NCBI GenBank assembly: GCA_965541585.1 | Contig: CBEUCH010000015.1 | Coordinates: forward strand, 7,120 to 71,119 | DNA from: an uncultured bacterium | Lineage (GTDB): Bacteria > Zixibacteria > MSB-5A5 > UBA10806 | Reading direction: 5' to 3' | DNA length: 64,000 nucleotides | Part shown: positions 32,882-54,843 of the stretch, one piece after another | Numbering within the stretch: the first letter of the stretch is position 1 | How the letters are laid out: every line of letters starts with the position of its first letter | Made by a program: the position numbers and the translations under genes | Notes under the pieces: generated by a model | The model's database searches: none | The model's input: the letters and a program-made list of their open reading frames with translations, nothing else | What the model was told of the DNA's origin: nothing

Positions 32882-33281
32882 AATCTCTCCCGGCATTGGT
32901 GCTTTAATCTTCCGATGATCATTCCAAGTTCGAAAAAACAGGGTAGCGACGATTATGTCAAGCGCAAAAGCCGCTCTTATAGTATCTTCAGGATTGTCGA
33001 TAACTCTTGCAGAGAACAAAGGAGGAGCGAGGAAATGGAGGCTTGTTTCGAAGCAATTTTAAGAAAGCCGAAAGCGTCAAACGGCCTCTAAATAACCGAA
33101 GTAAAGACGATCGATGATTCACATACTTTCTCCATCCAATGAGGATATTTCATGACCACCCCTGAATAGTTGCTCGTTTTTTTTACTCGGTTGCATTTCA
33201 AGAGCTTGCCGTGCCTGCAGAAAAAGTGAGAACTCACTTGTGTCTTTTTTATTATTATCGTAACTTAAAATGTAGATTATT

Positions 33282-33367
33282 GCCGGAATGGCGGAATAGG
33301 TAGACGCAAGGGACTTAAAATCCCTCGGTCCGTATGGACTGTGCCGGTTCGATTCCGGCTTCCGGCA
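33282..33367 (+). tRNA. tRNA-Leu (anticodon TAA), class II with a long variable arm
   Basis: Hand fold. The acceptor is GCCGGAA/TTCCGGC, the anticodon loop CTTAAAA, the extra arm CGGTCCGTATGGACTG, and the T-arm GCCGGTTCGATTCCGGC. Confidence 0.8.
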
Positions 33368-33476
33368 TTATAAATCACTACGAGTGAACGGGTTGCAAAA
33401 TGTGCATCGCAACCCGTTTTTTGGTGGATTGTAGGCAAGTCCTACATGAGTCCACACTTTTTGCGGTTTTTACCAG

Positions 33477-34550
33477 TCAATAAGGAAGTTTTGCCACCAT
33501 GTCGGTCTTGTATTTTTCCGCAAGATGAGCGTATATTTCTGTGGTTTTGATGGAGGAATGACCCAATAGTTCCTTTATTGCGTATAGCGGCACTCCTGCC
33601 ATCGCAAGATGTGAGGCATAGGAAAAACGTAGGGAATGGCAGCTAGCCCAGTCCAGGCCTATCGAGGAACAGGTCTTACTGATTTTCCGGCTTACTGTAT
33701 CGGGTTTCCATTGTGGGAGTTCCTTTCCTTTTTCATCCCGGGAACCAAAAACTTTATTGTCTTTTCTCCTTTGAAGTGAACCAAGCATTTTCCCAAGACC
33801 ACTTTTTTTATCAAACCCAAGGTATCTATACCTTCTACTCTTCGAATTTGACGCCCTTATTGTAATCTGGCATTTATTGAAATCAATGTCATCCCAGGTT
33901 AATGATAAGGCCTCGCGAAGCCTAACGCCCGTCCATAAATAAAAATTCACAACATCTTGGAAAACAGTTCCTTCAAACGCTTCGCGTAACTTCTCAATTT
34001 CGTCTACTTCAAGATACTTTGGTCGAGGCGCACCTTGGCTCCGTAGCATTTTGATCCTTCTAAAAGGGCTCGTTTCCATTAGCCCCCAGCTAAGAGCGGT
34101 ATTAAATATTGCCTTAAGATGACGAAGCTCTAGATTTACCGTCGATTCTGAAATATGTGAGTTTTTTCTATTTGACGGCTGGCTGAGTCTGTGTCTAACA
34201 TAACCATCAACGAGGGCGCTATTGATTGTTTTCAATTCAACGTTTCCGATGTATTTCGCAAACAATCTCAATACTCTTTCTTCTCTGTTTAAAGTCGATG
34301 GCCTCTTTACAAGACTGCAGTGATTTAAATAATCACGCATAAAATCTTCGAGTAGAATATTCTCAAATTGCCCTACTGTAGATTTGCCTTCAACAAGCTG
34401 GCTGCAAAACTTATGGTACTCTTTTTGAGCAGTCCGTTTATCAACTTCACCGATTGTTTTTAATTGATCTCTGCCATTCAATCTGTAACGAATTACCCAC
34501 ACAGATCTCCCCGTCCTGTAATTTCTTTTTTGCAATGAGGCCATCAACAC
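33477..34550 (-). CDS. int: Tyrosine site-specific recombinase (phage integrase family)
   Basis: The C-terminal catalytic region has HSLRFSYASHLAMAGVPLYAIKELLGHSSIKTTEIYAHL (R..H..R..Y signature). The N-terminus has a SAM-like core-binding domain. Confidence 0.85.
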   Translation of the reverse strand: MLMASLQKRNYRTGRSVWVIRYRLNGRDQLKTIGEVDKRTAQKEYHKFCSQLVEGKSTVGQFENILLEDFMRDYLNHCSLVKRPSTLNREERVLRLFAKYIGNVELKTINSALVDGYVRHRLSQPSNRKNSHISESTVNLELRHLKAIFNTALSWGLMETSPFRRIKMLRSQGAPRPKYLEVDEIEKLREAFEGTVFQDVVNFYLWTGVRLREALSLTWDDIDFNKCQITIRASNSKSRRYRYLGFDKKSGLGKMLGSLQRRKDNKVFGSRDEKGKELPQWKPDTVSRKISKTCSSIGLDWASCHSLRFSYASHLAMAGVPLYAIKELLGHSSIKTTEIYAHLAEKYKTDMVAKLPY

Positions 34551-37859: not shown

Positions 37860-39758
37860 TCAGCGATCAGAGCGCCGATAAATCTTAAATATTGAACAAT
37901 AATAACCCATATCCCTATCGCATTCTATTAGATTTTCTTCTATTTTGAAAAAATGGCGCAATCGCTCATTTGTTTCTGAAATGTTTACTATTAAAGTGGC
38001 ATCAGTCTTCTTATAATGTAATATTCCGTTACTATCAGCCAGCTTACCCAGCACCTCTTCGTAAGGCCTAATTGAATTTCTTTTTGATTTTATATTCTGA
38101 AAACCCATCTCCTTAAACGTTCTAATTTCTGTTGGATGCTTTTTCCTAACATCATTGATATCAAATTTACATGAATCGTCTGCGAAACCAACTACAAGCT
38201 GCTTCCATTCAATTCCGGGTGGCAATATAAATGGGATTATTGAATCAATCGCTTCTTGTGGGATAGACGGTTTTTTCTCTTTGGCTTTTTGTTCTCTATC
38301 TATTAATAAACTATCTGGAAGTTCAGTCAAAGTGTTTTCATTATCATCAGCGAGGAGTACTGTTCGTTCAATTACTGACCGCAGTTCCCTTATGTTGCCC
38401 TCTTTCCAGCTGTGTAATTTTAGTTTCTTTAATAGATCTTTGGAAACTTTCCGGATATTTTTCCTGAATTGTTTCGAGAATTCAGCAATAAACAGGTTAA
38501 CAAACTTTTCAATATCGTCGCTTCTTTCTCTTAAAGGAGGTATATGTATCTCATAAGTATTTATCCGATGATAAAAATCCTCTCTCATAATGTTATTATC
38601 TATTAAGTGACGTGGTTTTTTGCTCAATGTCATAACTATTTTAATATCTGTTTTTATACTCTTGGTAAAGCCCTGTTCCTGTATTTCCCCCTTATCTAAA
38701 AACCTCAGCATCTTTCCCTGAAAATCATAAGGCATATCATTGACATTATCTAAAAATACTGTCCCTTTATCAGCCTGTTCAAAGATGCCCTTTTGATTGT
38801 GTATCCCTTCCAAAAAAGGTCTATTCTTGGCGCCGAATAGATAATACTCGAATGCAGCATTTGCAATCTCGGAGCAGTAAACAACATAGAACGGTTCCCT
38901 GTTTCTATTACTTTTGCCATGAAAATAGCGCGCAATAACATCTTTTCCGGTTCCGGGCTCACCGTTAAGTAATATGATTTTTGCTTCATCATACTTAGCG
39001 ATTTTTTCAACCTCTGATAAAACATTCTTAAAATTTGGAGCATCCCCGATTATAGTGAAAGGCTGATCAGCTATTTTCATAATTGCCGGTTTTGCCTGGT
39101 CAACATATGTCTGAATATTCCCGACGAGATCAGAATAACTGTCCGTATCTCCGAGAATATTAGCATACTTTTCACCAAGCCGGGCGAATGGGATTTCCTC
39201 AAGAGCGATATCGGCATTCTCACCCTTCCGCGGATAGAAATAATCTGGTGTCATGATGCCCTCGGGGTGTCGAAGGTAATAAAGATGATCTTGTTTTCTG
39301 CCTAATATTGTTAAGGCGAGTCCCAAATAAACGGACATTATTCTTCTTCCGCCCGCATATATACAGTGTAATTCTGTATCGGGGTCTTTTGTCAAGTTCC
39401 TAAGTAAATTCGCAATTTTATTCGCGGTCATTTCAAATTGTTCTGGAGTCTTTATATCATCCTGGATATTTCCTTTCTCATCTTCAATCATATAGATATC
39501 TTCTTCAGTAAATTTGGGGAATGTTTTATATTCCGCGCAAAACTTGCTGAAGACTTTGTTTTCGCCGAGTAAAGGGGGCATACCTGTTCTAGGATTACCC
39601 ATAAAGAGTTCGTCCCTGCCAATTGATGTTGTGATTAAGACTATTCTTTCAATATCGATGGGTCGCGGCCGTTTTCGGGTTCTAAAATACCAAAGCGACA
39701 GTGTTATAACGTTAGGGATGTTACCGAAGACGCCAAATAGCAAGTGCATCTTTTTCAT
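37860..39758 (-). CDS. Three-part protein: an N-terminal CARF-like Rossmann sensor domain, a degenerate sigma54-activator-type AAA+ core (GAFTGA absent, Walker B DE changed to DN), and a C-terminal 170-aa unknown domain with no Fis HTH
   Basis: The AAA+ core shows Walker A GEPGTGKDVIARYFH, an EYYLFG...RPFLEG segment replacing ESELFGHEKGAFTGA, Walker B VFLDNV, and IHIPPLRERSDDI plus SWKEGNIRELRSVIERTVLL (sensor II). The N-terminus has IVLITTSIG and IYAGGRRIMS, resembling CARF motifs hTLGTS and DxTSGTKAMS. Confidence 0.6.
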   Translation of the reverse strand: MKKMHLLFGVFGNIPNVITLSLWYFRTRKRPRPIDIERIVLITTSIGRDELFMGNPRTGMPPLLGENKVFSKFCAEYKTFPKFTEEDIYMIEDEKGNIQDDIKTPEQFEMTANKIANLLRNLTKDPDTELHCIYAGGRRIMSVYLGLALTILGRKQDHLYYLRHPEGIMTPDYFYPRKGENADIALEEIPFARLGEKYANILGDTDSYSDLVGNIQTYVDQAKPAIMKIADQPFTIIGDAPNFKNVLSEVEKIAKYDEAKIILLNGEPGTGKDVIARYFHGKSNRNREPFYVVYCSEIANAAFEYYLFGAKNRPFLEGIHNQKGIFEQADKGTVFLDNVNDMPYDFQGKMLRFLDKGEIQEQGFTKSIKTDIKIVMTLSKKPRHLIDNNIMREDFYHRINTYEIHIPPLRERSDDIEKFVNLFIAEFSKQFRKNIRKVSKDLLKKLKLHSWKEGNIRELRSVIERTVLLADDNENTLTELPDSLLIDREQKAKEKKPSIPQEAIDSIIPFILPPGIEWKQLVVGFADDSCKFDINDVRKKHPTEIRTFKEMGFQNIKSKRNSIRPYEEVLGKLADSNGILHYKKTDATLIVNISETNERLRHFFKIEENLIECDRDMGYYCSIFKIYRRSDR

Positions 39759-40343
39759 GTTTGGCTCTCCTTAAAAATGCTCCACGTACCTTGAATGTGA
39801 TATCTGCCTCTGATCTATTCTACATTTTCAATCGGGCGAGATCGCCTTTTCTAATCGCAAATTCATTTTAGCTCAAATCAGTAAGATTGTAAAGCGGATC
39901 TCGTAACGCTAAGTGTCTGATTCATCAAACTCTCCATTTATCGTATTAGAATAGCGCTTTTATGGCTTATTTCTAACGATTCTGTGGCCAATGCGATTTA
40001 TTATTTGCGTCACTATCATGTTTCTTCCCCCTCGTTTTTATGGCACCACGGCAAAGGCCTCTGAGGCGCAATCGCCAGCCGGTTTGCCATAGTATCCGCC
40101 GTTAACTCGATACGACTGATTTGCAATTCTATGTCTGCCAATGGCTTATGTTTGCTGCATCGGGGTCCGAAACCAACCCGACCATCTACCAACGACTTAT
40201 GGGGATCGACGGGTGGCCCCAGAGTGCCTCCGAAATTTCAAACCGCTCAGGGACGATTTTGGGCCGTCTTCTCGTGACATCGAAATTCCATAAAATCTAC
40301 ACTAAATCGAGCTAGCGGGAAGAAGAAAAAGTAAAAAAACATT

Positions 40344-40372
40344 TGACAAAGCTACAATGTTTTAGTATAATT
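40344..40372 (+). promoter_or_regulatory. Consensus sigma70 promoter giving a leaderless transcript for the XRE gene
   Basis: TTGACA, then 17 nt, then TATAAT. The predicted transcription start is at or about 1 nt before ATG 40378. Confidence 0.45.
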
Positions 40373-41241: not shown

Positions 41242-43767
41242 ATGTTTTGGGGCTTGAATATGAAGACTTTATCCAATTTAATTATTATGAACAGAAGTCT
41301 AATTTACGAGATTTTTTCACAACTTCAGGAAGGAGAGTACATCAGGTTAGCCTGGGAAGATAAAAATGAAGAGTTTCACTGGCAAGGAATAGACAACTAT
41401 GAACAATTTATAGCGAAAGTTAATGAATTAAGATCCAATCCCCATATAGCCAGTATCTGGTTTACGCCTCATCCGAGCAATTCGGAAACATCCCATGAAA
41501 ACGACAACGTTAAACATGTTCAATGGGTTTATGTCGATATCGATGATATTTCGACCGAAGATTTTATAAAGAACTACAATTTCATAAGACCAACATATAT
41601 TATTGCTACAGGTCACGGCGTTCAGCTTTATTGGCAGTTGAAGCAGCGTATAGCAGCACCTTTTGATGAATGGCGTTATGTCGAAAAGGCCATAGAGAAA
41701 AAGCTTAATGGAGAAAAAGGTTACCCTTGTGCTTTGCTTCGCGTTCCCGATACACCCAACAGAAAACATCTCATCGAGAAACATCGCAAAAAGGGATATA
41801 CAGTAGAAACCGATTGCAAGGTCATTGAATTTAATGATGTTGCCTACGGCCTTGATGATTTCATACAGGCCGGTTTGAAAATCAACGCTAAACCTGCTCC
41901 TACTATTCAAAGTAATGAATCTAAGCTGACAATCTCCGATCTAACGTGTATTCGTCAACACTGCGCTGCCGTAGACTCGGCGTTTAAATCTATTGAAAAT
42001 GACTCGGATAATGATAAAACGGCCGGTCACAATAAGCGTCTAACCGCTGCCAGCATCATAAAGCATACCGTTGATGATGAAGATTATGTGTTAAAGCTGT
42101 TCGGTAACACTGCTGATTTTAAAAAGGATGTCACGCTAAAGAACTATCAAAGTATAAAACAAAAACCAATCACTTGTAGGCAATTGCAGGAATGGAATCT
42201 TTGCTTCAAACCTTGCCAACTGATCCAAGACCTGAACAAGAAAAGCCCTATAGTATTTGCCTACCGCAAAGGAGTTCAGCTTAAGCGGACTAACGAATTA
42301 TTAAGCGACACTGAAAACGATGCCTGTTTTGAAGAACTTATGAAGCGGGCCAAAACAGTAGAAAATCCCGTTAATCAGTTAAAACTTATCAACAGAATAC
42401 AGGCTACAACCGGATTGAATAAAGCGGAAATCAGCCATTATATGCGTCGGGTCAAGGTTTTCGATGAATTAAATTCATATATAGTCAATGCCCAAGTGGA
42501 TCCTGTAAGAGCGGCAAAATACATAATCAAAAAATATCAACTGATGCGTTTTCAACAGGACTTTTATCAATTTGATGACGGCATATGGGAGCATAAACCG
42601 CAGGAAGAAACCGAATCACTTATTCATCACGAAATTGAAAAATACTCGGACAACCATACAATCAGCGAAGTCATTAACGCCGTAAAACGCGAATCATTGA
42701 TTACACATATACAAGTTGAGGATGCCCAGGATACTTATGTGATCGCGGCCGGTAACGGCTTATTAGATGTTCGTAATGACTCGCTTCGAGATTTTAAACC
42801 CGAAGATTATAGATTTGGGAAAATGGGTGCTGGTTATAATCCCGATGCCGATTGTCCGGCATTTAAGGATTTCATTAAAGAGCTGTTTCTTTTTGATGTT
42901 GACGCGTCAGATAAAAGGCTATTGGTGCAGGAGATATTTGGATATCTTTTAATCCCTGATTATACTTTGATAAAAAAGATGTTTTATTTCTACGGCCCTA
43001 AAGCCAACAACGGCAAATCCAGCCTAATTGAAATCATCCGATCGATTATGGGACCGGGCTACTTTGACAGCGTTCCTATGGATAAAATGAATGGTTTTCT
43101 GTTAAAACGCCTAATGGGAAAACATGCAAACGTCGTAGGAGATCAGGATGCTTACACTAAAGTTCCTGATGGAGTATTGAAACAGCTTATTGGCGGCATG
43201 GACGAAATTACCGCAGATGTGAAGTATAAAGATGCAATTAGCTTTATCAATCATGCCAGGCTGATATTCGCAGTAAACAAACTCCCATATTCTGAAGCGA
43301 AGGATGAGGGATACTTTACCAGGGCGGTTATTCTAACATTCAACAATCAATTTCTTATTAATCCAGACAAGAAGGATCCGCGGCAGATGAAAGCTGATAT
43401 TGAAAAGATACAGTACATAAAGGATAACGAAAAGGAGGGCATCCTAAATTGGATGCTGGAAGGTTTGAAAAGGCTATTGGTAAATAAGAAATTGACAATC
43501 CCGGCAACTTCGGCAACTGCCTTGAAGGACTACAAAACGAACAATAACAGCATATTACTATTTGTTAGTGATAGATGTCAGCTTGGATCATCATTTGAAG
43601 TGAGTCAATCTGAGTTGTATACCGATTATAAGGCATGGTGCTTAGATCAGGGATTTAAATTCTATGCAAATGCAATTACTTTCTGTGATCTACTTGAGCG
43701 GGAGTATAACGTAGCCCGCCAGAGGAATAAAAATTCACGACAGCTGTTAGGAATTCAAATGGCATAA
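41242..43767 (+). CDS. Primase-polymerase / D5-like helicase replication protein (phage/plasmid primase, P4 family C-terminal domain)
   Basis: The C-terminal NTPase has Walker A FYFYGPKANNGKSS and the surrounding conservation of the P4 alpha / poxvirus D5 family. The N-terminal half resembles a bifunctional prim-pol domain. Confidence 0.65.
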   Translation: MFWGLNMKTLSNLIIMNRSLIYEIFSQLQEGEYIRLAWEDKNEEFHWQGIDNYEQFIAKVNELRSNPHIASIWFTPHPSNSETSHENDNVKHVQWVYVDIDDISTEDFIKNYNFIRPTYIIATGHGVQLYWQLKQRIAAPFDEWRYVEKAIEKKLNGEKGYPCALLRVPDTPNRKHLIEKHRKKGYTVETDCKVIEFNDVAYGLDDFIQAGLKINAKPAPTIQSNESKLTISDLTCIRQHCAAVDSAFKSIENDSDNDKTAGHNKRLTAASIIKHTVDDEDYVLKLFGNTADFKKDVTLKNYQSIKQKPITCRQLQEWNLCFKPCQLIQDLNKKSPIVFAYRKGVQLKRTNELLSDTENDACFEELMKRAKTVENPVNQLKLINRIQATTGLNKAEISHYMRRVKVFDELNSYIVNAQVDPVRAAKYIIKKYQLMRFQQDFYQFDDGIWEHKPQEETESLIHHEIEKYSDNHTISEVINAVKRESLITHIQVEDAQDTYVIAAGNGLLDVRNDSLRDFKPEDYRFGKMGAGYNPDADCPAFKDFIKELFLFDVDASDKRLLVQEIFGYLLIPDYTLIKKMFYFYGPKANNGKSSLIEIIRSIMGPGYFDSVPMDKMNGFLLKRLMGKHANVVGDQDAYTKVPDGVLKQLIGGMDEITADVKYKDAISFINHARLIFAVNKLPYSEAKDEGYFTRAVILTFNNQFLINPDKKDPRQMKADIEKIQYIKDNEKEGILNWMLEGLKRLLVNKKLTIPATSATALKDYKTNNNSILLFVSDRCQLGSSFEVSQSELYTDYKAWCLDQGFKFYANAITFCDLLEREYNVARQRNKNSRQLLGIQMA

Positions 43768-44004
43768 TTGTCACCTTTGTCACCCTCTGTCACCGCCTAA
43801 GTCGTTGTGTAACAAGAGAAATGACAAAATGACAAGAAAATAGCCTAGAAAAGTATTACAGGAAAATTGATAGACACACAAATACAGGAGAATAGTTTTT
43901 TACGGTCATTTTTGTCACCCGGGCACTAAAAAGTTGTTAACTTGCTGCATATCAATTGATTGCGGCGAAAAAACAGGGTGACAAAAAGGTGACAAAGGTG
44001 ACAG
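43768..44004. repeat. Iteron cluster (putative ori): 3x TGTCACC direct repeats (43768-43794), a single copy at 43913, and 3x inverted GGTGACA (43977-44004) at roughly 10-11 bp phasing
   Basis: Read directly: ttgtcacctttgtcaccctctgtcacc ... ttttgtcacccggg ... gggtgacaaaaaggtgacaaaggtgacag. It lies immediately 3' of the primase gene. Confidence 0.55.
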
Positions 44005-44303
44005 AAATATATCATGACGTACAGAAAGAAATTCATACCCGAAGCTAATCTGAGGAAGATAATAAAACATCCAAACCATCCAAGACTTGATAACGAAGAG
44101 AAACCTAAACCACAATATGAGGACGGTAGTGGTTTCTTGGCCGAGATGCGCCAGCTTGACTTTGCAGCTGACGAAGCCCTCAAATCCCACGCGGCGACTA
44201 CAAGTTAAGGGGGGTACACGCCATTAACCAGAGAATATTAGAAGAACACTTATGAAATAATATCCAAGCAGGTAATGTTCAACAATTTAACCAGCAATAA
44301 ATA

Positions 44304-44786
44304 ATGCTAATAAACCATAACGGCATCATATGCCACATATCAAAAATAGACCAGCCTCACAGGATCTGGTACCATATTTGGGTAGACCTTGAAAGATACG
44401 GGGAAGACTATATACGCGAAAAGTTCGGCGTAACAGATCCCAGAATCCAGCGTAAAATACAGGACGAGTTTTATCGCGCCGTCATATCCTATAGGTCGAA
44501 GCCGACCGAGATATTGGAGGAGCATGCCCTTCGGCTGGATAAAACGGATTACCCATTCTATTTGACCGATAAAACCAAGGATTCAGTTACGGTATTTATG
44601 GAGAAAGGACTATTTACGTTGTATCCTGGTCAGCCAAACGGCATGGATCGGCCTCCTAATGGATATCCCTGGGCGATCATCTATAACACCGACACACCTG
44701 AAATCATCCAAGCCAAGTTGTATGATCACAGGAAGCGGTTTGGCCCAGCTATGCGAAAGAAGCTCTGGAAAGTCTGCGGTTGGTAG
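44304..44786 (+). CDS. Hypothetical protein (160 aa)
   Basis: An open frame, followed by a strong terminator. No family is recognised. Confidence 0.35.
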   Translation: MLINHNGIICHISKIDQPHRIWYHIWVDLERYGEDYIREKFGVTDPRIQRKIQDEFYRAVISYRSKPTEILEEHALRLDKTDYPFYLTDKTKDSVTVFMEKGLFTLYPGQPNGMDRPPNGYPWAIIYNTDTPEIIQAKLYDHRKRFGPAMRKKLWKVCGW

Positions 44787-44932: not shown

Positions 44933-46483
44933 ATGGCGAAAAAGGATATCAAAAAGAATTCCGAAAGTTTCGAAAAAACACTATTTAAAGCAGCGGACAA
45001 ATTAAGAAAAAACATAGACGCGGCTGAGTATAAGCATATTGTACTCGGCCTTATTTTTTTGAAGTATATTTCTGACTCATTTGAGGAATTACACATAAAC
45101 CTCCTGGCAGGCAAAGGCGAATACAAAGGAGCCGATCCTGAAGATGCCGATGAATACCGTGCTGAGAATGTCTTCTGGGTTCCCAAGGTTGCTCGCTGGT
45201 CGCATCTTCACTCACGAGCCAAACAGCCAACTATCGGAAAAGATGTTGACGATGCAATGGAGGCAATCGAAAAAGAGAACAAGACCCTCAAAGGTATCCT
45301 CCCCAAAGTTTTCGCCAAACCAAATCTCGACAAGACTTCATTAGGTGGGCTGATTGACATGATCGGCAACATTGCTCTTGGTGATGAGGCTTCAAAGAGC
45401 AAAGATATACTTGGTCGAGTCTATGAGTATTTTCTTGGCGAATTTGCTTTGGCAGAAGGCAAGAAAGGCGGACAGTTCTTTACTCCCAAGTCAATCGTCC
45501 AGACTATGGTCGAAATGATCGCACCCTACAAGGGCAGGGTATTTGACCCCTGCTGTGGTTCTGGCGGAATGTTTGTAATGAGTGAGAAGTTCGTTGCCAG
45601 CCATAAAGGTAAGGTCAACGATATTTCCATATACGGTCAGGAAAGCAACCAGACTACTTATCGCTTGTGCAGAATGAACCTGGCATTGCGTGGCATCGAT
45701 GGCTCGCAGGTTAAGTGGAACAATGAAGGCTCCTTTCTAAAGGATGAACACAGGGACTTGAAGGCCGATTTCATTCTGGCTAATCCGCCATTCAATGATA
45801 GTGACTGGAGCGGTCAACTCCTGAGAAAAGACCCTCGTTGGCAGTACGGCGCACCACCCACTGGGAATGCCAACTATGCGTGGATGCAACACATGATTTA
45901 TCATTTGTCCCCAAAAGGGATTATGGGATTGGTGCTTGCCAATGGGTCGCTCTCTTCGAATACATCTGGCGAAGGGGACATCCGTAATAGTATTATAGGT
46001 GCTGACTTGGTGGATTGCATTGTCGCTCTGCCAAAGAATCTTTTCTATAACGTCACTATTCCTGCGTGCCTTTGGTTTCTTTCCCGTAAACGGACAGGCA
46101 ATGGTAATAGGAAACGCTCGGGCGAGATTCTTTTCATAGATGCTACCGAAGTAGGCCACATGATTGATCGCACTCATCGGGTGTTTACCGATGAGGATGT
46201 GTTGAGACTTGCCAACACCTACCATGAGTGGAGAAAAGAGAATGGCAACTATGAAGATATCAAGGGCTTTTGCAAATCTGCCGCACTCAAGAACGTAGAA
46301 AAGCACAAATTCGTCCTCACACCAGGGCGTTATGTCGGCATTCCCGACGAAGAAGATGACGGTATTCCTTTTGATGAAAAGATGAAATCGCTTACTGGTG
46401 AATTGGCCCAACAAATGTCAGACGAAAAGCGGCTCGATAGTGAGATACAGAAGCAGCTAAAGAATGTCGGGTATAACATTTAG
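44933..46483 (+). CDS. hsdM: Type I restriction-modification system DNA methyltransferase subunit
   Basis: It has the HsdM N-domain ([15 protein letters not shown]), AdoMet motif I ([13 protein letters not shown]) and motif IV (NPPF, in [12 protein letters not shown]). Confidence 0.85.
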
Positions 46484-46503
46484 CCGAGAACTAACTTGAG
46501 GTT

Positions 46504-47367
46504 ATGGCAAAATTAGGCATTTCAGAGTTTTCATTCAGCTTTTCTTTTCTGCATGAGCAGGTAAATAGAAATGGTAGACCATTCTGTGTTCCTGTATTAC
46601 CCTCTCTGCGTAGAGAATCTGATGTAGGGTATGATGCTAAGCTTCCTAAAAAGGGGATTGACTACTATTTCCAATTCAAAATGAGTGATTACTTGCGAGG
46701 TGGAAATGCCAAATTTATTAAGGATGGCACATATAGAAGTCTTTACTATCGAATTGCTCTGCATAAGGCCAAGAAGAACAAACAGCACAATCTTCTCTAT
46801 ATGCTTTCTCAAAAGAACCCATATGTTTACTACGTTGCACCTAAGCTAAGAACAGATCAGTCATTTTATGATGCTTGTGTAAGAAGGTTAGTTACGGTGA
46901 GTTCAATGATGATTCCAGTGGATTCCTGTGGTTATGTCAGCGATTCGCTTCAACACTTTGTGACATATCCAGAATTTGGCTATGAGTGGCATTTCCATTC
47001 AAAGCCCAAGCGATTTGATAATGCAATTGAAGGGGAGCGGATAGTTTCGCACTTCGCAGAAAGTTCTAAGAACTGGGTGGCTATCAACAAGGAATTCGCT
47101 TTGAATGTTTATGAACGAATAAAGCAATCAACATATGTATATCAGAGTGGTGATTTTGAAGGGATAGAAGATAATACGAGGAAAGCTATAGGCGATGACA
47201 AAAGATTAGGTATCGTAGGCGTAGAAACCAAAAAGCCAACTTTCAATGTTGAAGAGTTCTTTGATCGGAATATAAAAAAGTCAGATACTTTTACGATATT
47301 GCAGAGAGCATCCGCTATTGCGATGATGTTATATGGTTCAGCACTGATGATAGTCGGTGAAAACTAA
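46504..47367 (+). CDS. Hypothetical protein inserted between hsdM and hsdS
   Basis: It is a 287-aa open frame within the R-M operon, with 20-bp gaps either side. No motif is recognised. Confidence 0.4.
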   Translation: MAKLGISEFSFSFSFLHEQVNRNGRPFCVPVLPSLRRESDVGYDAKLPKKGIDYYFQFKMSDYLRGGNAKFIKDGTYRSLYYRIALHKAKKNKQHNLLYMLSQKNPYVYYVAPKLRTDQSFYDACVRRLVTVSSMMIPVDSCGYVSDSLQHFVTYPEFGYEWHFHSKPKRFDNAIEGERIVSHFAESSKNWVAINKEFALNVYERIKQSTYVYQSGDFEGIEDNTRKAIGDDKRLGIVGVETKKPTFNVEEFFDRNIKKSDTFTILQRASAIAMMLYGSALMIVGEN

Positions 47368-47372
47368 CAATT

Positions 47373-48542
47373 ATGAACAAGACTGATTCAAAGCAAATAC
47401 CTGATGGATGGAAAGAAACAACATTGGGAGCACTTGTTACCTTTCAACGTGGTCATGATTTGCCGAGATCTAAAATGGTTGATGGTTCTTTTCCAATCAT
47501 GGGGTCAAATGGTATTATTGGATTTCATAACCAAAGTACAACAAAAGCTCCAGGCGTGACAATCGGTAGAAGTGGTAATATTGGAAGAGCCTTTTTAGTG
47601 AAAAGAGATTATTGGGCGCATAACACAACATTATATTCCAAACAGTTTCATGATTCGGATCCTGTTTTTGTATATTATTTAGTGAAAAACCTAAAATTTG
47701 AAAGATTCAATTCGGGTAGTGCTGTTCCAAGTTTAAATAGAAACTTCATTCATCCGATTCAGCTAAATGCTCCAATTATCTTTGAACAAAAAGCCATTGC
47801 CAGGGTTTTATCCTCTCTCGATGACAAGATTGAGTTGCTACGCAAGCAGAATGAAACCCTTGAAGCGATAGCACAGACAATCTTCAAAGAGTGGTTTGTG
47901 AACTTCAACTTCCCTGACAAAAATGGAAAGCCGTTCAAGGACGGCGGCGGCAAGATGATCGACTCCGAGCTGGGCGAGATTCCTGACGGGTGGAGAGTGG
48001 GTAAACTCGGCGACGAGTTTGGCATACTAATGGGGCAATCGCCACCTGGAACAAGCTACAATGAAGAAAGCGAAGGGGTTGTATTTTTTCAGGGCAGAAC
48101 TGATTTTCAAGAACGATTTCCAAAAGTTAGGCTCTATACAACAGAACCCAAGAGAATCGCTGAAGCATTTGATGTATTGGTAAGCGTAAGAGCACCAGTC
48201 GGTGATGTTAATGTTGCCATTGAAACCTGCTGCATTGGTCGAGGTCTAAGCTCTGTAAGAGGACAGCAACAATCCTACACATTGTACAAAATGAAGTTTT
48301 TGGGAGACGTATTGCGACGATTCGATGCAGAAGGGACAGTTTTTGGGTCAATTAGCAAAGATGATTTCAAGAGTATTGAAGTCCTGACACCGATGGAAGA
48401 ATGGATAAACTCATTTGAGAACACAGTCAATCCATTGGATCAGAAAATACTCTCAAATTATAAGCAAATACAAACATTAACTCGACTACGAGACATTCTG
48501 CTGCCCAAGTTGATGAGTGGGCAGGTGAGGGTGAGGATGTAG
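47373..48542 (+). CDS. hsdS: Type I R-M specificity subunit with two target-recognition domains
   Basis: The central conserved coiled region ELLRKQNETLEAIAQTIFKEWFVNFNFPD and the repeated TRD architecture are present. It is 389 aa. Confidence 0.8.
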   Translation: MNKTDSKQIPDGWKETTLGALVTFQRGHDLPRSKMVDGSFPIMGSNGIIGFHNQSTTKAPGVTIGRSGNIGRAFLVKRDYWAHNTTLYSKQFHDSDPVFVYYLVKNLKFERFNSGSAVPSLNRNFIHPIQLNAPIIFEQKAIARVLSSLDDKIELLRKQNETLEAIAQTIFKEWFVNFNFPDKNGKPFKDGGGKMIDSELGEIPDGWRVGKLGDEFGILMGQSPPGTSYNEESEGVVFFQGRTDFQERFPKVRLYTTEPKRIAEAFDVLVSVRAPVGDVNVAIETCCIGRGLSSVRGQQQSYTLYKMKFLGDVLRRFDAEGTVFGSISKDDFKSIEVLTPMEEWINSFENTVNPLDQKILSNYKQIQTLTRLRDILLPKLMSGQVRVRM

Positions 48543-48557
48543 AAGGAGGGAATCAAA

Positions 48558-48923
48558 ATGGAAAGGTATATTCTAACAACCTATGATAAGAACAGATTAA
48601 GCTCCTATCCTATGATAATTTCAATACACGGTAAATCGTGGTGTTGTAAGCAGGCTCGAATCCTTGTTCAAAGTATGGATGGTGGTTTCATAACTGCTAA
48701 CTGTATGAAATGTAATAATAAAACGAATGTATTGATTGACGAATTTCAATCTTTTGATAGAGACGTAAACTGTCCCAAATGTGGTATGGTTATGTCTCCT
48801 GCTTATGTCCCTGATGGAAGTAAAATTGAAGAACGTAACTATGGTTTTAAGTGCATGAAATGTGATATTTATATATGGGCATCTGATTTAATTCCATATT
48901 ATGAAGATTTTCCATATAGATAA
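48558..48923 (+). CDS. Small zinc-ribbon protein (four CxxC pairs) inserted between hsdS and hsdR
   Basis: CC-KQ, CMKCNNK, CPKCGM and CMKCD motifs are present. AGGAGGG lies 6 nt before ATG 48558. Confidence 0.4.
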   Translation: MERYILTTYDKNRLSSYPMIISIHGKSWCCKQARILVQSMDGGFITANCMKCNNKTNVLIDEFQSFDRDVNCPKCGMVMSPAYVPDGSKIEERNYGFKCMKCDIYIWASDLIPYYEDFPYR

Positions 48924-48931
48924 TAAGAAAC

Positions 48932-51900
48932 ATGACAAGAGACAAAATCACAGAAGATGCAGTCGAACAGGTAGCCATAGAGCTACTCGAAGAGCAGGGA
49001 TACCACTACCTCACTCCCGAACAGTGGGAGGCTGAACGAGGGGACCTATCCAATGTTCTCTTGAGGGATCGTCTGAAAACTGCCATTGATAAACTTAACC
49101 CGATAATTCCGCAGGAAGCGAAAGAACAAGCCTTACGAGTAGTGTCGAATCTTCCCAGTCAGAATTTGGTGGAGAACAACGAGACGTTTCATCGGATGTT
49201 GACCGATGGAATTGACGTTGAATATATGGGAGATGATGGCATTAAAGGTGATAAGGTCTGGCTTATTGATTTCAAAGAACTCACCGAAAATGACCTGGTC
49301 GTTTGTAATCAGTTTACGGTTATCCAGGACAGCCTCAACAAACGCCCAGACGTGGTGCTGTTTGTTAATGGATTGCCACTTGTTGTGATAGAGTTGAAAA
49401 ATCCAGCTGATGAAAACGCTACTGTTAAGAAAGCATATACCCAGCTCCAGAATTACAAGAACGCAATCCCCAATCTGTTTTATTATAATGGAATTTTAAT
49501 AGCTTCTGATGGCCTGGACGCAAAGGTTGGATCATTGACTGCAGGTTGGTCTCGGTTCATGGTCTGGAAAACGAGCGATGGAGCCAAGGAAGATAAGGTC
49601 ACTATTCCTCAAATGGAAACCGTCATCAGAGGTATGCTGAGACCCGATGTACTGTTTGACCTTATAAAGCAGTTCACTGTCTTTGAAAAAACCAAAAAAG
49701 AGGACACCAAGACCAGATTCACAACAATAGAAACAGCTAAGAAGATAGCGGCATATCACCAGTATTATGCCGTCAAGAAAGCAGTTGAATCTACCAAGCG
49801 GGCCGCCAGTGATAATGGAAGTAGAAAAGGTGGCGTTGTCTGGCATACGCAAGGCAGCGGTAAATCTCTTTCCATGGTGTTCTATTCAGGACAGACAGTA
49901 TTAGAACTTGATAACCCAACGATTGTAGTAATTACCGATAGAAATGATCTTGATGATCAGCTATTTGATACTTTCGCGGGTTGTAAACAGCTATTAAGAC
50001 AAGAGCCAGTACAGGCGGAGAATCGGGAACACCTAAAAAAACTACTCAAGGTTGCTGGCGGCGGTATCGTATTCACGACAATTCAGAAGTTCTCGCCTGA
50101 AGACGGCGGAGATGTATTTGATCTATTATCTGACAGAAAAAACATCGTTGTAATAGCCGACGAAGCCCATAGGAGCCAGTACGGATTCGGCGCCAAGACT
50201 ATCGTGCGAAATAATGAAGCATATACCAGTTATGGCTTCGCTAAGTATCTCAGGGATGCCCTTCCAAAAGCGACCTTCATTGGATTTACAGGCACACCTA
50301 TTGAAAAAGAAGACAGATCAACGCGAGCAGTCTTTGGCAATGAAATTGATATCTATGATATTTCTCAGGCTGTCAAAGACGGAGCAACTGTTCGTATTTA
50401 CTATGAATCCCGATTAGCTAAAGTCCACCTGAAACCCGAGGAGAAAGATAAGCTCGACGCTGAAGTTGAAAGAATAACTGAAGGTGAAGAATCGACTGCG
50501 AAGGAAAAGGCAAAAGCCAAATGGACTCAACTCGAAGCAATAGTTGGGCATCGGGATAGGCTAAAATCTGTCGCCAAAGATATTATCGATCATTTTGAGA
50601 GGCGGGAGGAAGTATTTGACGGTAAGGCCCTAATTGTGACTACGAGCCGTCGCATAGCTGTTGAGTTATACGAAAAAATAATGGCCTTACGTCCACATTG
50701 GCATGGCGACGATAAGAGAAAAGGCGAGATCAAGGTAATAATGACCTCCAGTTCCAGCGATCCTCAAAGCTGGCAAAAGCATAATACAACAAAGCAGGAC
50801 AGAAAAGACATTGGGGAAAGGTTCAAAGACCCGAATGATAGGCTGAAATTCGTTATAGTTAGGGATATGTGGCTTACAGGCTTTGATGCCCCTTGTCTCC
50901 ACACCATGTACGTTGATAAGCTGATGCGAGGACATAACCTAATGCAGGCCATAGCGCGCGTGAATAGGGTTTTCAAAGATAAACCTGGCGGCCTCATTGT
51001 TGACTATATCGGAATTGGATACGATCTCAAAAAAGCGATGGCAACCTATTCTGAAAGCGGTGGGGAGGGTGAACCAACTTTGGATATTGATGAAGCTATC
51101 GCGACAATGCTGGAGAAGTACGAAATCGTTGCTCAAATGTTTGATGGTTTTGATTATAAGCGATATTTTACAGCCAATACTAAAGACAAGATGACAATCA
51201 TCTTGGAAGCCCAGGAGCATATTCTCGGTCTGGACGACGGCAAGAACAGATTTGTAAGACAGGTGATTCTGCTTTCAAAAGCCTTTGCCCTATCCGTGCC
51301 AAATGAAGAGGCAATGGCGATTAAGGATGATATTGGCTTCTTTCAAACGGTAAAGGCTCGTCTCACGAAATTCACTCCAACAGGAGGCGGTAAGTCTGAC
51401 GAGGAGATAGAAACAGCAATACGGCAGATTGTCGATAAAGCCATAGTTTCAGAAGGAGTAGTCGATATATTTGCTGCTGCTGGTATCAAGAAGCCTGATA
51501 TTTCGATATTGTCGGATGAATTTATGGCTGAAATTAAAGGTATGAAACGAAAGAACCTAGCTTTTGAATTATTAAAGAAAATCTTGTCCGACGAAATCAG
51601 GCTCAGATTGACCAGAAACCTAATTCATGGCAAAAAGCTATCTGAACTGTTGGAAAACGCTATTAAGAAATACCAGAATAACCTCCTGACCGCGTTTCAA
51701 GTTATTGAAGAATTGATTGAACTGGCTAAACACATCAAGTCCGAAGATGAGCGCGGCAAAGAGATGAATTTGTCCGCAGATGAAATTGCATTCTACGATG
51801 CTTTGGCAGATAACGATAGCGCAAAAGAAGTTCTCGGCGATGACACACTACGAGAGCTTGCTAGAATATTGGTCGAGAAAGTTCGCGCTAATACGTCAAT

Positions 51901-52054
51901 TGACTGGACAATTAAGGAGAGTGTTCAGGCCAAATTGCGGACAATAATCAAGAGAACGCTACGCAAGTTCGGCTACCCGCCTGATAAGCAGTTGTTGGCA
52001 ACCGAGAATATTCTTAAACAAGCGGAGTTGTTTGCAAATGAATGGGCTGCGTAG
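48932..52054 (+). CDS. hsdR: Type I restriction enzyme R subunit (SF2 helicase-nuclease)
   Basis: The HsdR N-terminal nuclease region, Walker A HTQGSGKSLSMV, DEAH box VVIADEAHRSQ and motif VI region are present. It is 1040 aa. Confidence 0.85.
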   Translation: MTRDKITEDAVEQVAIELLEEQGYHYLTPEQWEAERGDLSNVLLRDRLKTAIDKLNPIIPQEAKEQALRVVSNLPSQNLVENNETFHRMLTDGIDVEYMGDDGIKGDKVWLIDFKELTENDLVVCNQFTVIQDSLNKRPDVVLFVNGLPLVVIELKNPADENATVKKAYTQLQNYKNAIPNLFYYNGILIASDGLDAKVGSLTAGWSRFMVWKTSDGAKEDKVTIPQMETVIRGMLRPDVLFDLIKQFTVFEKTKKEDTKTRFTTIETAKKIAAYHQYYAVKKAVESTKRAASDNGSRKGGVVWHTQGSGKSLSMVFYSGQTVLELDNPTIVVITDRNDLDDQLFDTFAGCKQLLRQEPVQAENREHLKKLLKVAGGGIVFTTIQKFSPEDGGDVFDLLSDRKNIVVIADEAHRSQYGFGAKTIVRNNEAYTSYGFAKYLRDALPKATFIGFTGTPIEKEDRSTRAVFGNEIDIYDISQAVKDGATVRIYYESRLAKVHLKPEEKDKLDAEVERITEGEESTAKEKAKAKWTQLEAIVGHRDRLKSVAKDIIDHFERREEVFDGKALIVTTSRRIAVELYEKIMALRPHWHGDDKRKGEIKVIMTSSSSDPQSWQKHNTTKQDRKDIGERFKDPNDRLKFVIVRDMWLTGFDAPCLHTMYVDKLMRGHNLMQAIARVNRVFKDKPGGLIVDYIGIGYDLKKAMATYSESGGEGEPTLDIDEAIATMLEKYEIVAQMFDGFDYKRYFTANTKDKMTIILEAQEHILGLDDGKNRFVRQVILLSKAFALSVPNEEAMAIKDDIGFFQTVKARLTKFTPTGGGKSDEEIETAIRQIVDKAIVSEGVVDIFAAAGIKKPDISILSDEFMAEIKGMKRKNLAFELLKKILSDEIRLRLTRNLIHGKKLSELLENAIKKYQNNLLTAFQVIEELIELAKHIKSEDERGKEMNLSADEIAFYDALADNDSAKEVLGDDTLRELARILVEKVRANTSIDWTIKESVQAKLRTIIKRTLRKFGYPPDKQLLATENILKQAELFANEWAA

Positions 52055-52154
52055 ATGTCAGGAATTTATTTATGAATATTTTGAACCAAACATAACTTGA
52101 AGTCCACGAGCAGAAGATAAAAACAAAATAGGCGAGGTTTGGGGGGAATGACAT

Positions 52155-54647
52155 ATGATAAATAAAATAATTAAATTGAACAATCTTGGTCTCTTCAAAG
52201 GATCAACATGGGCAGATAGTGATCTCCAGTTTGGGAAGGTCAATCTCCTTTACGGATTTACTGGGAGCGGGAAAACAATGCTTTCCAATGTTCTAAGGAT
52301 GTTCAGCAAAGACTTACCCAGTGATGAACAATGTGCGATCCTGGACCAACTGCGCAATAAGGAGAGTGTGGATGTTGAGATTGAGCTACTATGGGATAGT
52401 AAAAAGGTAAGATCCTTCTCTGAAAGAAAGAGCATTTTCGTGTTCAACTCACATTTTGTGAATGAACATGTCTATGACGGCTCAAGCTCAAAGCTAAAAC
52501 ACTTTAAGGCAAGTGTTGTTACAACAGAGCATCTCAAGAATCCAGAAATAAAAAAATCGGAGGACTCTATATCAGTTAAGCAACAACAGTATGAGCAGAA
52601 TCAGAAGCAGATCACGCAGTTGTCCGAGCTGGCGCGTACAACAAGGGCTAATCTCTCAAACCTGTGGAACGCGTCTATTTCTGGTCCCAGACTACCGCAA
52701 AATCTAAATCTCAACAATCCCGAGATCATCCCTCATGGGGCCTCAGAAATTACGCTTGATGAACTTGAGAACCAATTGGCGGATCATTATCGAAAGTTCA
52801 AGGTCACAAAAAGTAATTATGATCTGCAAAAGGATGAAAAAACACTGGAAGAAAGGACCTTTGAAAAACTCACCATCCCATTAGCAATAGAGTCACAACT
52901 ACAAAAGGATATTTCGCAGGAGGCCTACAAGAAAATAAAGGGGAGGCTGGACACTCTCAAAGAGTCAGAACTCAAGCATTCAAGCGTTCAGGAATGGTTT
53001 GAAGACGGTGTTGTGCTCCTGACTGACTCAAAGGATAGGCAGAAATGCCCTCTTTGTGATAGCGACATTCCCAATATAAGAGAGATCATCGAGGACTATA
53101 ACAGTTTCTTCAATGAGGAATTTGTAGGACTTCAAAAGGCCCTCGCTGCGGAAGTGCAGCAATTGAACACAATCTTAGAAACGGCAAGGAATGATAAGGA
53201 CCGATTTGATATTCTTAGCAAGATTATTCATAAATATCAGTTTATAGAGAAACTCACAAAGGACCAGAAATCCTTGCTACAGGAATATTCCATTATCGAG
53301 CTTGAAGACGTTGTAAATTCTGCCAAGAACCTTGTTGTTAAGAAACAAAAACAACTGGAAACGCTGTTCTTCGATAAGGACTTAGCCCCGATCCGTGATG
53401 CACTAGAAGAAATCAGAGCATACAACAAGACCATTGATAAGATTGAAACTCTTAGGAAAAAAGCACTGGTTGAGTTGAAGAGGAGTAGCTTCAATCTCAA
53501 TACGGCAAAAGAGACCGCAAAAGATTGTTTCTGGAAGAAATTCGATACCCTCGGGCATGTCTATGCAAAGAAATACGCGAGGAGCAACGAAGGTAAGAAA
53601 ACAGATCAGATGGGAGGAATCGAATTCTACAAATACCTGATTGAAATAAATGAGTGCTTAAGCAGGGAAATAGGGCAATGTAGGAAAGACAAGCTAGTTT
53701 TATTATCAAAACTGAAGAAAGAATCAGAGTTTGTGAATTCATTTCTCCAGCAGTTGTGTATTGCAAACTTCAAGATCAGAGTCGGCGATAAGGAAGAAGA
53801 CGATATAGAGGTTATATACGGTGACGGTGTAACCAAGAAAGGAATAAAGTATTCGTTAAGTGAGGGGGAGAAAACTGCTCTCGCTTTCGCGTATTTTCTC
53901 AGTAAGGTCAAGTATGAAATTTTAGATAACACACAGAGTAGACTGAAAGACCATGTAATGGTCATTGACGACCCAGTATCAAGTCTTGACGAAAACAGGC
54001 TATTCTCAACAGCATTACTCATAAAAGCAATGTTTGCTAGAGATTCAAAGCAATTATTCGTATTCAGCCATAATCTTGTGTTTTTGAAATTTATGGGCAG
54101 CGTTCTCGGGAAAGTGGATAATGAGGAGCGAAAGGATTTCTATCTGGAGAATGGGAAGATTGAGGGATTGCCAAAAACATTGCAGAACTTTCAAACATCG
54201 TACTTTTACAAGCTTGGAAGATTACAGGCCTATCTTGATGGGGAAGTGGATTACGAATCCGCGAAGGACGTGATTCCGAATTGTGCGCGAATAGTCTTGG
54301 AGTCATTTCTTTCTTTCAAATTGTGCCGTCTGAAGCAGGGTAGCGGTGCGAGTAACAGGTATAAGTCCGCTGGATTGGACAGGTTGATACCGGCAATAGA
54401 TGGCGTTAGCCTAACTGGTTTTACGCCGGTTGGCAATATCAATGACAAAAAAAGTCTGGTTCAAACGCTGTGCGAGATTAAGAACAGGGTGGATCCTGAA
54501 AGTCATGGAACGCCACAGGATATCACTGAGTTTGAGTTCCTGCCTGAATCTGAACTAAAGAAAGTCACCCATAATACTCTCGATGTAATTGCATTCTTAG
54601 ATCAGATCCATATTCGGGAGGTAAGCCGACTGGGCACACAAGGTTAG
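52155..54647 (+). CDS. RloC/PrrC-like ABC-type ATPase (AAA_13-like) with a long coiled-coil insert carrying a CxxC zinc hook. It is a putative anticodon-nuclease-type abortive infection protein.
   Basis: It has Walker A GFTGSGKTM, an ABC signature LSEGEKTALAF, Walker B/D-loop VMVIDDPVSSLDENR and an H-loop FSHN. Between Walker A and the signature lies about 500 aa of heptad-rich sequence with QKCPLCDSD at its midpoint. The C-terminal 170 aa includes ARIVLESF (an R-x3-E pair as in the PrrC ACNase motif). Confidence 0.5.
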   Translation: MINKIIKLNNLGLFKGSTWADSDLQFGKVNLLYGFTGSGKTMLSNVLRMFSKDLPSDEQCAILDQLRNKESVDVEIELLWDSKKVRSFSERKSIFVFNSHFVNEHVYDGSSSKLKHFKASVVTTEHLKNPEIKKSEDSISVKQQQYEQNQKQITQLSELARTTRANLSNLWNASISGPRLPQNLNLNNPEIIPHGASEITLDELENQLADHYRKFKVTKSNYDLQKDEKTLEERTFEKLTIPLAIESQLQKDISQEAYKKIKGRLDTLKESELKHSSVQEWFEDGVVLLTDSKDRQKCPLCDSDIPNIREIIEDYNSFFNEEFVGLQKALAAEVQQLNTILETARNDKDRFDILSKIIHKYQFIEKLTKDQKSLLQEYSIIELEDVVNSAKNLVVKKQKQLETLFFDKDLAPIRDALEEIRAYNKTIDKIETLRKKALVELKRSSFNLNTAKETAKDCFWKKFDTLGHVYAKKYARSNEGKKTDQMGGIEFYKYLIEINECLSREIGQCRKDKLVLLSKLKKESEFVNSFLQQLCIANFKIRVGDKEEDDIEVIYGDGVTKKGIKYSLSEGEKTALAFAYFLSKVKYEILDNTQSRLKDHVMVIDDPVSSLDENRLFSTALLIKAMFARDSKQLFVFSHNLVFLKFMGSVLGKVDNEERKDFYLENGKIEGLPKTLQNFQTSYFYKLGRLQAYLDGEVDYESAKDVIPNCARIVLESFLSFKLCRLKQGSGASNRYKSAGLDRLIPAIDGVSLTGFTPVGNINDKKSLVQTLCEIKNRVDPESHGTPQDITEFEFLPESELKKVTHNTLDVIAFLDQIHIREVSRLGTQG

Positions 54648-54817
54648 GTGTTGAATTGGATGAACCTCATCACAGTTTTGTGGATATTATAGCGCAGTTG
54701 TTTTGCTCGGAAGATATCTGGCTTTGAAAAAGGTTCGAACATCCTTATCCGAATCGATCATTATGGTATAACTCGCCCCGTTTAATAGCCGACGATGGTG
54801 CCATCAGTAACTTCAGG

Positions 54818-54843
54818 CCGCCTCCATTTGATGGTATAAGAAT
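54818..54843 (+). promoter_or_regulatory. Promoter-like direct repeat copy 1 (GCCGCCTC-N-TTGATGGTATAAGAA; extended -10 TGgTATAAG)
   Basis: It lies about 170 bp upstream of the GIY-YIG gene. A near-identical element is found at 57037..57063. Confidence 0.35.

Follow-up and report, generated by a model that had tools for sequence, protein, structure and literature searches.

A probable iteron-type replication origin behind a primase-helicase gene in an integrative defence island of an uncultured bacterium

The subject of this study is a cluster of short inverted repeats at positions 43768-44004 of a 64-kb stretch of DNA from an uncultured bacterium (that whole stretch is called the window below). 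The cluster lies directly downstream of a predicted primase-helicase gene, within an integrative element situated beside a tRNA-Leu gene, and it is probably the vegetative replication origin of that element, an origin of the iteron type (iteron ori). We favour this reading because the position of the repeat arrays is conserved in all 14 of the related loci that can be read past the gene, because of the domain make-up of the protein encoded upstream, and because the arrangement matches the published origins of the Staphylococcus aureus pathogenicity islands (SaPIs) and phage-inducible chromosomal islands (PICIs). The upstream protein, of 841 aa, would be a self-loading initiator that combines an N-terminal archaeo-eukaryotic primase (AEP) domain, a central D5-type superfamily 3 (SF3) helicase and a C-terminal winged helix. 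An earlier note on this DNA, made from the letters alone, had proposed a plasmid- or satellite-type origin or initiator-binding region tied to the prim-pol/D5 gene, and comparison with related loci supports that proposal.

Repeat architecture and its conservation among related loci

The open reading frame (ORF) of the primase ends with a TAA codon at 43765-43767, and the first heptamer begins 1 nt past this stop. Three exact copies of TGTCACC on the forward strand form the left array (43769-43775, 43778-43784 and 43788-43794; span 43769..43794), with start-to-start spacings of 9 and 10 bp. The right array is opposed to it in orientation and consists of three exact copies of GGTGACA, that is, TGTCACC on the reverse strand (43977-43983, 43988-43994 and 43997-44003), spaced by 11 and 9 bp. 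The two arrays are 182 nt apart, and a lone exact copy of TGTCACC stands between them on the forward strand at 43913-43919. All of this bears out the description in the earlier note, which had listed three copies in each direction, phased at about one helical turn, in opposed clusters about 180 bp apart with a single copy between. Across the two arrays there is a perfect 16-nt inverted repeat (TGTCACCTTTGTCACC / GGTGACAAAGGTGACA), and TTTTTGTCACCC, at the internal copy (43913..43919), is a perfect inverted match to GGGTGACAAAAA at 43976-43987. Conservation in relatives reveals two further, degenerate copies, both AATGACA on the reverse strand and facing inward (43820-43826 and 43828-43834, 8 bp spacing).

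The clustering of the heptamer is extreme. The window carries 14 copies of TGTCACC, against 3.97 ± 2.24 in dinucleotide-preserving shuffles, none of which (0 of 100) reached 14. Half of the copies (7 of 14) fall inside 235 bp, where about 0.015 would be expected, and a Poisson estimate for seven or more is about 3e-17. A second heptamer cluster was not found anywhere in the 64-kb window, even with one mismatch allowed.

Between the left array and the internal copy lies an AT-rich spacer (43798..43912, no strand assigned), with a GC content of 30.4% compared with 46-57% in the arrays, 39% in the primase coding sequence and 41.6% in the island, and this is the candidate region for melting and helicase loading. 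The earlier note had advised a search for an AT-rich unwinding element and DnaA boxes nearby: the former is represented by the spacer, while no DnaA box with up to two mismatches was found in 43368-44105 and the count over the whole window was not above chance, as expected for a self-loading helicase. AT-rich centres are likewise seen in five of the related loci described below (L005, L010, L012, L073 and L074) and in distant viral relatives.

Proteins of this family are uncommon, numbering 16 matches among 5.8 billion protein clusters; a scan of genome contigs gave one related locus and a metagenome scan gave five, and the small size of the family limits the statistics of covariation between iteron and protein. 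The loci compared encode proteins 44-88% identical to that of the window, plus one (L013) that shares the primase domain only. Close relatives all come from metagenome assemblies, and the one of known taxonomy among them is L001, a metagenome-assembled genome (MAG) of Zixibacteria. Fourteen loci are readable after the gene (L001-L006, L008, L010, L012, L013 and L071-L074), and in 14 of 14 the homologous gene is followed by opposed arrays of short repeats, which begin no more than 25 nt past its stop codon.

The position of the arrays is fixed, and their motif changes with lineage. TGTCACC is used by the window, L001, L002 and L003, TGTCAC[GA] by L008, and CTGTCA[TC]C by L012; a second set of motifs comprises CTGGCAG (L004), GTGGCAG (L010) and TTGGCA[GT] (L005 and L071), and the remaining two are TGCCCT (L006 and L072-L074) and GTGAAAG (L013). 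A constant place combined with a lineage-specific motif is the pattern that should be expected of a cis site co-evolving with a trans-acting binder. Within the TGTCACC type, the left and right arrays each hold two to three copies in L001, L002 and L003, the lone internal copy is kept in all three, and the orientation of the spacer is identical in all four loci. The AATGACA columns are invariant across the same four in the alignment, despite a protein identity of only 70% for L001, a locus in which the centre of the spacer has diverged while the heptamers remain intact. Most heptamer copies of a locus fall inside this interval (6 of 7 in L001, 7 of 7 in L003 and 7 of 10 in L004). The number and orientation of arrays do vary, being ++/--/+++ in L004 and +++/+++/--/++ in L012.

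A more distant set of 56 relatives from viral contigs was fetched (23-33% identity), of which 54 were analysable. In 15 of these 54, no other stretch of the locus is as rich in 7-mer repeats as the 400 nt after the gene, about 0.8 being expected by chance, and in the viral examples inspected the arrays were again opposed around an AT-rich dip. The layout is thus general among D5/SF3 initiators that have a winged helix at the C-terminus.

Several other features of the region may be recorded. A block, TAAGTCGTTGTGTAACAAGAGAAATGACAAAATGACAAGAAAATAGCC (43797-43845), is nearly invariant even in L001, at 70% protein identity. Since the 3' end of the primase coding region is less conserved, the block may have an extra function, for example as a priming site, a host-factor site or inner iterons. 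The sequence TATCAATTGATTG at 43949-43961 fits, on our reading, the IHF consensus of E. coli, WATCAANNNNTTR; L002 has retained this sequence, and L003 and L001 have not. A search of 43600-44400 against Rfam at a permissive threshold returned no RNA family, and a promoter and terminator scan of the interval gave only weak promoter matches (9/12) and did not detect a terminator separating the primase gene from the arrays. Cumulative GC skew was tried as an origin marker and set aside: its minimum does not coincide with the repeats and lies at about 40 kb, at the switch of gene orientation, and the measure is uninformative for so small an element. Among the relatives, the origin of L006 (8553-8660) lacks the central AT-rich part and the inner iterons that are present in L073 (3415-3700) and L074 (2430-2720), and it looks like a deletion derivative of their longer origin.

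The predicted initiator and the reader of the repeats

The longest ORF of the initiator gene runs from 41242 to 43767 on the forward strand (841 aa). All close homologues begin at the position of M16, for which reason the true start is probably the ATG at 41287 (MNRSLI...). Pfam finds D5_N at aa 427-549, DUF5906 (the SF3 helicase) at 583-692 and Pox_D5 at 767-824, with no match in the first 420 residues, and the PHROGs label is 'DNA primase'. A structural model of the N-terminal part (residues 16-235, pLDDT 86) matches the AEP domain of the cyanophage S-2L PrimPol (E 2.5e-7, TM 0.73) and also the RepB' primase of RSF1010. This domain contains invariant aspartates D99 and D101 (VDIDD in the window) and a G-x-G-x-Q-L-Y-W segment (GHGVQLYW in the window), which, on our reading, resemble AEP catalytic motifs. 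The label 'prim-pol/D5' used in the earlier note is correct.

When PDB was searched with a profile of the family, the best match and closest solved relative was PriRep5 of SaPI5 (7OLA, E 2.7e-17); a search of PDB with the single sequence gave no match, and only the profile reached PriRep5. The helicase core is 23% identical to that of P4 alpha (E 9e-11), and no significant alignment with P4 alpha was obtained for the C-terminus. Among annotated phage and plasmid proteins the nearest reach no more than 27% identity to the initiator, and they provided no annotated origin for direct comparison.

The C-terminus was modelled as its last 117 residues, of which the last 70 have a pLDDT above 90 and a winged-helix topology (H-H-beta-beta). 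Its top Foldseek match is the DNA-bound DNA-binding domain of RFX1 (1dp7; TM 0.74, root-mean-square deviation 1.9 Å over 73 columns), followed by the C-terminus of the African swine fever virus primase-helicase and the winged helices of ORC/Cdc6. The winged helices of RFX, P4 alpha (1ka8) and pRN1 ORF904 have been aligned and share two conserved tyrosines in helix alpha2 (PMC2777425). The family has an invariant pair of tyrosines, Y793 and Y796, which may correspond to this pair. On the basis of the model, the iteron-recognition domain is proposed to be this winged helix (about aa 780-841), encoded by 43579..43764 on the forward strand.

The protein that reads the repeats is likely to be the primase-helicase, and the part that does so its C-terminal winged helix rather than its N-terminal primase domain. 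The gene for it is the only homologous neighbour common to the loci, and it precedes the arrays in every one. When 10 related loci were searched with tblastn, a homologue of the XRE gene of the window was present in two, DUF5659 in five, and the 64-aa ORF that follows the arrays in six; at least five of the loci without XRE have readable upstream sequence, while some other contigs are cut upstream. In SaPI Rep, the iterons are recognised by a winged helix in the C-terminal domain (PMC9371898). Within the present family, the last 61 residues are 69-97% identical to those of the window protein in loci that have its iteron; in loci with another iteron the figure falls to 30-39%, although whole-protein identity to these loci is still 44-59%.

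The one locus that shares only the primase domain is informative here. Its protein (P0014, 967 aa, at 4001-7200 of L013) has in common with the window protein only the AEP domain, at 56% identity over aa 2-393; the C-terminal half is unrelated and has no Pfam match, and the iteron, GTGAAAG, is also unrelated. It looks as if the helicase and DNA-binding module had been exchanged jointly with the origin. That a new C-terminal half and a new iteron accompany a retained AEP domain argues against the N-terminal domain as reader of the repeats, and on this ground, together with homology, the assignment of binding to the primase N-terminal domain in the earlier note gives way to the winged helix as the likelier binder.

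The recognition helix offers a hint of how the specificity might be set. Proteins that go with TGTCA-type motifs have I, V or T as the first variable residue of the helix motif xNAxTF (in the window, I811); where the iteron is of the TGGCA type this residue is H or K, and where it is TGCCC the residue is R. This pattern is chemically sensible, and with few and related groups it is suggestive only; the same applies to the link between winged helix and iteron in general, which is suggestive and not statistical.

A mechanism can be outlined by homology to SaPI Rep/PriRep and P4 alpha, from which winged-helix binding, melting, double-ring loading and priming are all inferred. The winged helices of single protomers would each bind one TGTCACC heptamer, and the spacing of 9-11 bp would place these protomers on one face of the DNA. 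The opposed arrays and the inward-facing inner copies could then nucleate two helicase rings that flank the 30%-GC spacer (43798-43912). This stretch would melt, and the rings would load and travel apart, with the AEP domain laying primers for extension by the host polymerase. Replication would presumably follow excision of the element by its integrase and Xis.

Known origins and alternative explanations

The closest parallels are the origins of SaPIs and PICIs (SaPI1, SaPIbov1, SaPI5 and EcCICFT073). In SaPIs the ori follows the rep ORF immediately and is built of 6-12 iterons; its centre is AT-rich, each flank has two or more iterons, and the two flanks are opposed in direction, while SaPI Rep loads itself, needing ATP for neither binding nor melting (PMC9371898). 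PICIs of Gram-negative bacteria have the same organisation, and a plasmid maintenance test of pri-rep-ori has been reported for EcCICFT073 (PMC6092414). The window resembles them in the place of the ori, directly 3' of the initiator ORF; in the number of short iterons, 7 exact heptamers plus 2 conserved degenerate ones compared with 6-12 of 5-7 nt; in the opposed sets, three forward on the left and three reverse on the right, around an AT-rich centre (30% GC); and in an SF3 helicase initiator with a C-terminal winged helix, which in SaPIs and PICIs is sometimes fused to a primase. Judged at the level of sequence, the region agrees with a SaPI/PICI-type origin in every respect by which such an origin is recognised. 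The differences concern the protein and the element: the initiator is related to PriRep5 by profile search only, at low sequence identity; the element exceeds 30 kb, as opposed to about 10-15 kb, is laden with defence genes, and had no detectable genes for packaging or capsid remodelling; and the labelled relative, L001, is a Zixibacteria MAG and not from Firmicutes or Enterobacteria. Since it is too large and has no packaging genes, the element as a whole falls outside the definition of a PICI.

The phage-plasmid P4 is similar in other ways. Its alpha protein also joins a primase with an SF3 helicase and winged helix, its iterons come right after the gene in both orientations with 9-10 bp spacing, and the type-1 repeats of its crr (GGTGAACA/TGTTCACC, both orientations) include an octamer, TGTTCACC, that becomes the TGTCACC of the window when one T is removed, although the proteins are only 23% identical in the helicase core. 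The primase domain of P4 alpha, however, is of the bacterial DnaG/Toprim type (PMC2777425). The primase of the window is instead an AEP, as its matches to S-2L PrimPol and RepB' indicate. P4 moreover needs two separate cis sites, ori and crr, where the window has one cluster, and the P4 crr is a 120-bp tandem duplication, which the window region is not. The element is thus missing two traits that define a P4 replicon, namely a primase of the Toprim type and paired cis sites. In domain order the nearest counterpart is ORF904 of the Sulfolobus plasmid pRN1, with a prim-pol, then an SF3 helicase, then a winged helix, and with its origin 3' of the gene (PMC2777425, PMC4234260). The order AEP, D5_N/SF3, RFX-like winged helix is identical in the window protein, whose probable origin also lies 3' of the gene; the pRN1 origin, however, is reported to be a stem-loop of about 100 nt without iterons, whereas the window has clear, phased ones.

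Classical iteron plasmids (pPS10, R6K, RK2, F and P1) carry direct repeats of 17-22 bp in one orientation. Their initiators, such as RepA, pi and TrfA, act as dimers or monomers with two winged helices and have no helicase or primase activity, and the origins depend on DnaA boxes and on loading of DnaB/DnaC from the host. What they share with the window is an element-encoded initiator and repeated sites beside an AT-rich region; the window differs in its opposed 7-mers, its lack of DnaA boxes and its SF3 helicase-primase initiator. In the origins of SV40 (large T, GAGGC pentamers) and the papillomaviruses (E1), inverted short repeats direct head-to-head SF3 hexamers beside an AT-rich tract. 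Their origin-binding domain differs in fold and lies N-terminal to the helicase, and there is no fused primase, so the similarity to the window is one of mechanism only.

A number of observations weigh against the proposed origin or parts of it. In the GenBank record of P4 (L009), the iteron region directly after the alpha gene is the crr (4291-4590), and the annotated ori (9086-9809) is 4.5 kb away, so that position alone is no proof of an origin. The spacer is not the most AT-rich 60-mer of its neighbourhood. The P4 origin-binding domain, 1ka8, was absent from the top 50 Foldseek matches of the C-terminal model, and the link between winged helix and iteron depends on about eight specificity groups that are phylogenetically nested. 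Finally, no attR was recognised for the element, in that no repeat of the tRNA end of at least 13 nt occurs downstream within the window.

The P4 precedent speaks for the possibility that the repeats are an auxiliary site for the same primase-helicase, crr-like, autoregulatory or concerned with copy control and handcuffing, with initiation elsewhere in the element. Just 10 nt separate the right array from the ORF that follows, and binding there could modulate downstream expression. We nevertheless regard this possibility as unlikely: the window has no second heptamer cluster, even with one mismatch allowed, and nearly all heptamer copies lie in the interval in L001, L003 and L004 as well. SaPI and PICI elements, among them the source of the closest solved homologue, have their ori at this one site, and even the P4 crr has been termed the cognate ori site of alpha (PMC6092414). 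It is very unlikely that the repeats are operators for another DNA-binding protein of the element (XRE, DUF5659 or the 64-aa ORF), controlling read-through or a promoter of the cargo operon and playing no part in replication. The arrays do lie between two co-oriented genes, with the last copy just upstream of the 64-aa ORF, and opposed operator arrays can loop DNA; yet the arrays occur in every locus readable past the gene, each of these candidate binders is missing from several of the 10 loci searched with tblastn, the motif changes track the C-terminus of the primase-helicase, and the interval has no convincing promoter or terminator. Operator sites of the XRE regulator had been named as the alternative in the earlier note, and the distribution of XRE (2 of 10 loci) and the lack of any TGTCACC array at its own strong promoter (40343-40371) both speak against it.

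A structural role would require the inverted arrays to form a long stem-loop or cruciform that the initiator reads, as has been proposed for the pRN1 origin downstream of orf904. ORF904 has the same order of domains, a stem-loop on the 3' side of its gene has been described as the ori (PMC4234260), and 43760-44012 folded as single-stranded DNA gives a z-score of -5.3 with the two arrays paired. This score was discarded as discriminating evidence, being a consequence of the inverted repeats themselves, and the loop would be some 180 nt long. In relatives, the number and orientation of arrays (L004 and L012) do not preserve one stem, and tandem spacing of about 10 bp with extra internal copies is typical of protein-binding iterons, all of which makes the structural reading highly improbable. 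The comparative data effectively refute the idea that the repeats arose by chance or through low complexity, or that they mark the two ends of a small transposon or of a segment that inverts. Only the inverted symmetry speaks for it, and against it stand the extreme enrichment, the position conserved in 14 of 14 readable loci and in many distant ones, the constant orientation of the spacer in the four TGTCACC-type loci, and the lack of an adjacent recombinase or transposase, the only integrase being 9 kb away beside the tRNA. Integrase arm sites, an invertible switch and transposon ends were each considered and dropped. So was a partition centromere, since no partition ATPase occurs among the ORFs scanned and the arrays persist without the small ORF.

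With the iteron origin thus retained as the probable reading, the understanding of this kind of origin is unchanged, its layout being already known from SaPIs, PICIs and P4. What is gained is a precise prediction of an origin and its matching initiator for integrative defence islands known only from metagenomes, and an indication that the SaPI/PICI and P4 layout (short iterons in opposed sets, an AT-rich core between them, and the gene of a self-loading SF3 helicase immediately ahead) also occurs with initiators of the prim-pol type. The roughly eight natural pairs of iteron and winged helix could be used in studies of the evolution of initiator specificity or as orthogonal replicons.

The surrounding island

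The element sits beside a tRNA-Leu(taa) gene at 33281-33368, and GC content falls from 48.7% ahead of the tRNA to 41.6% after it. The low-GC island extends from 33.4 kb to at least 64 kb, that is, over more than 30 kb. Pfam and PHROGs searches of the ORFs tested between 34.8 and 63.8 kb detected no capsid, terminase, packaging or helper-interference genes (terS, cpm, ppi or capsid-size redirection). From its gene content, the drop in GC and the lack of a detectable packaging gene, the setting is therefore an integrative defence island of more than 30 kb with its own replication module.

Next to the tRNA, on the reverse strand, are a tyrosine integrase (33477-34550) and, after it, an HTH_17 Xis-like gene and four ORFs without an assigned function. 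Also on the reverse strand, a gene at 37860-39758 encodes a CARF domain (Cas_NE0113/Csx1-like, aa 5-230) fused to a sigma54-activator AAA+ domain, and PADLOC calls it RtcR_PspF2--CARF_AAA_HTH (E 1.9e-62). Sigma54-activator genes are found near the primase module in L002, L006 and L013 too, with CARF detected in the window only. The fusion protein may sense a signal and regulate the island in response; around its gene and the replication genes, the search for sigma54 promoters gave nothing convincing. It could be speculated further that these islands form a lineage, not yet described, of defence elements that replicate themselves and bear an integrase in uncultivated bacteria, PICI-like in having pri-rep-ori and without packaging genes, in which fast co-diversification of winged helix and iteron has produced at least eight orthogonal specificities and the CARF-sigma54 protein couples induction to cyclic-oligonucleotide signalling. 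Taken in full, this picture is quite unlikely.

Gene orientation then switches to the forward strand. The XRE gene, from 40378, stands behind a perfect sigma70 promoter (TTGACA-17 nt-TATAAT, 40343-40371) that ends 6 nt ahead of its ATG, which implies a leaderless, repressor-like transcript. The DUF5659 gene, also on the forward strand, lies between XRE and the primase-helicase. To the right of the origin, and outside the origin proper, whose right-hand edge it marks, is the conserved 64-aa ORF (44014..44208, forward strand), followed by a conserved 160-aa ORF (44304-44786, forward strand); neither has a Pfam or PHROG match. Both follow the origin in the window, L001, L002, L004, L008 and L013, and in L003 the contig runs out after the start of the 64-aa ORF, while homologues are absent from L005, L006, L010 and L012 (tblastn for the 64-aa ORF).

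Downstream of these ORFs lies the defence cargo (44933-61964). It opens with a type I restriction-modification system, which is interrupted by two ORFs without an assigned function (46504-47367 and 48558-48923), and continues with a PrrC-like AAA_13 protein (52155-54647, PDC-S06), a GIY-YIG/RAMA protein (55015-55743, PDC-S14) and a RecD-like protein of 1304 aa (58050-61964, PDC-S68).

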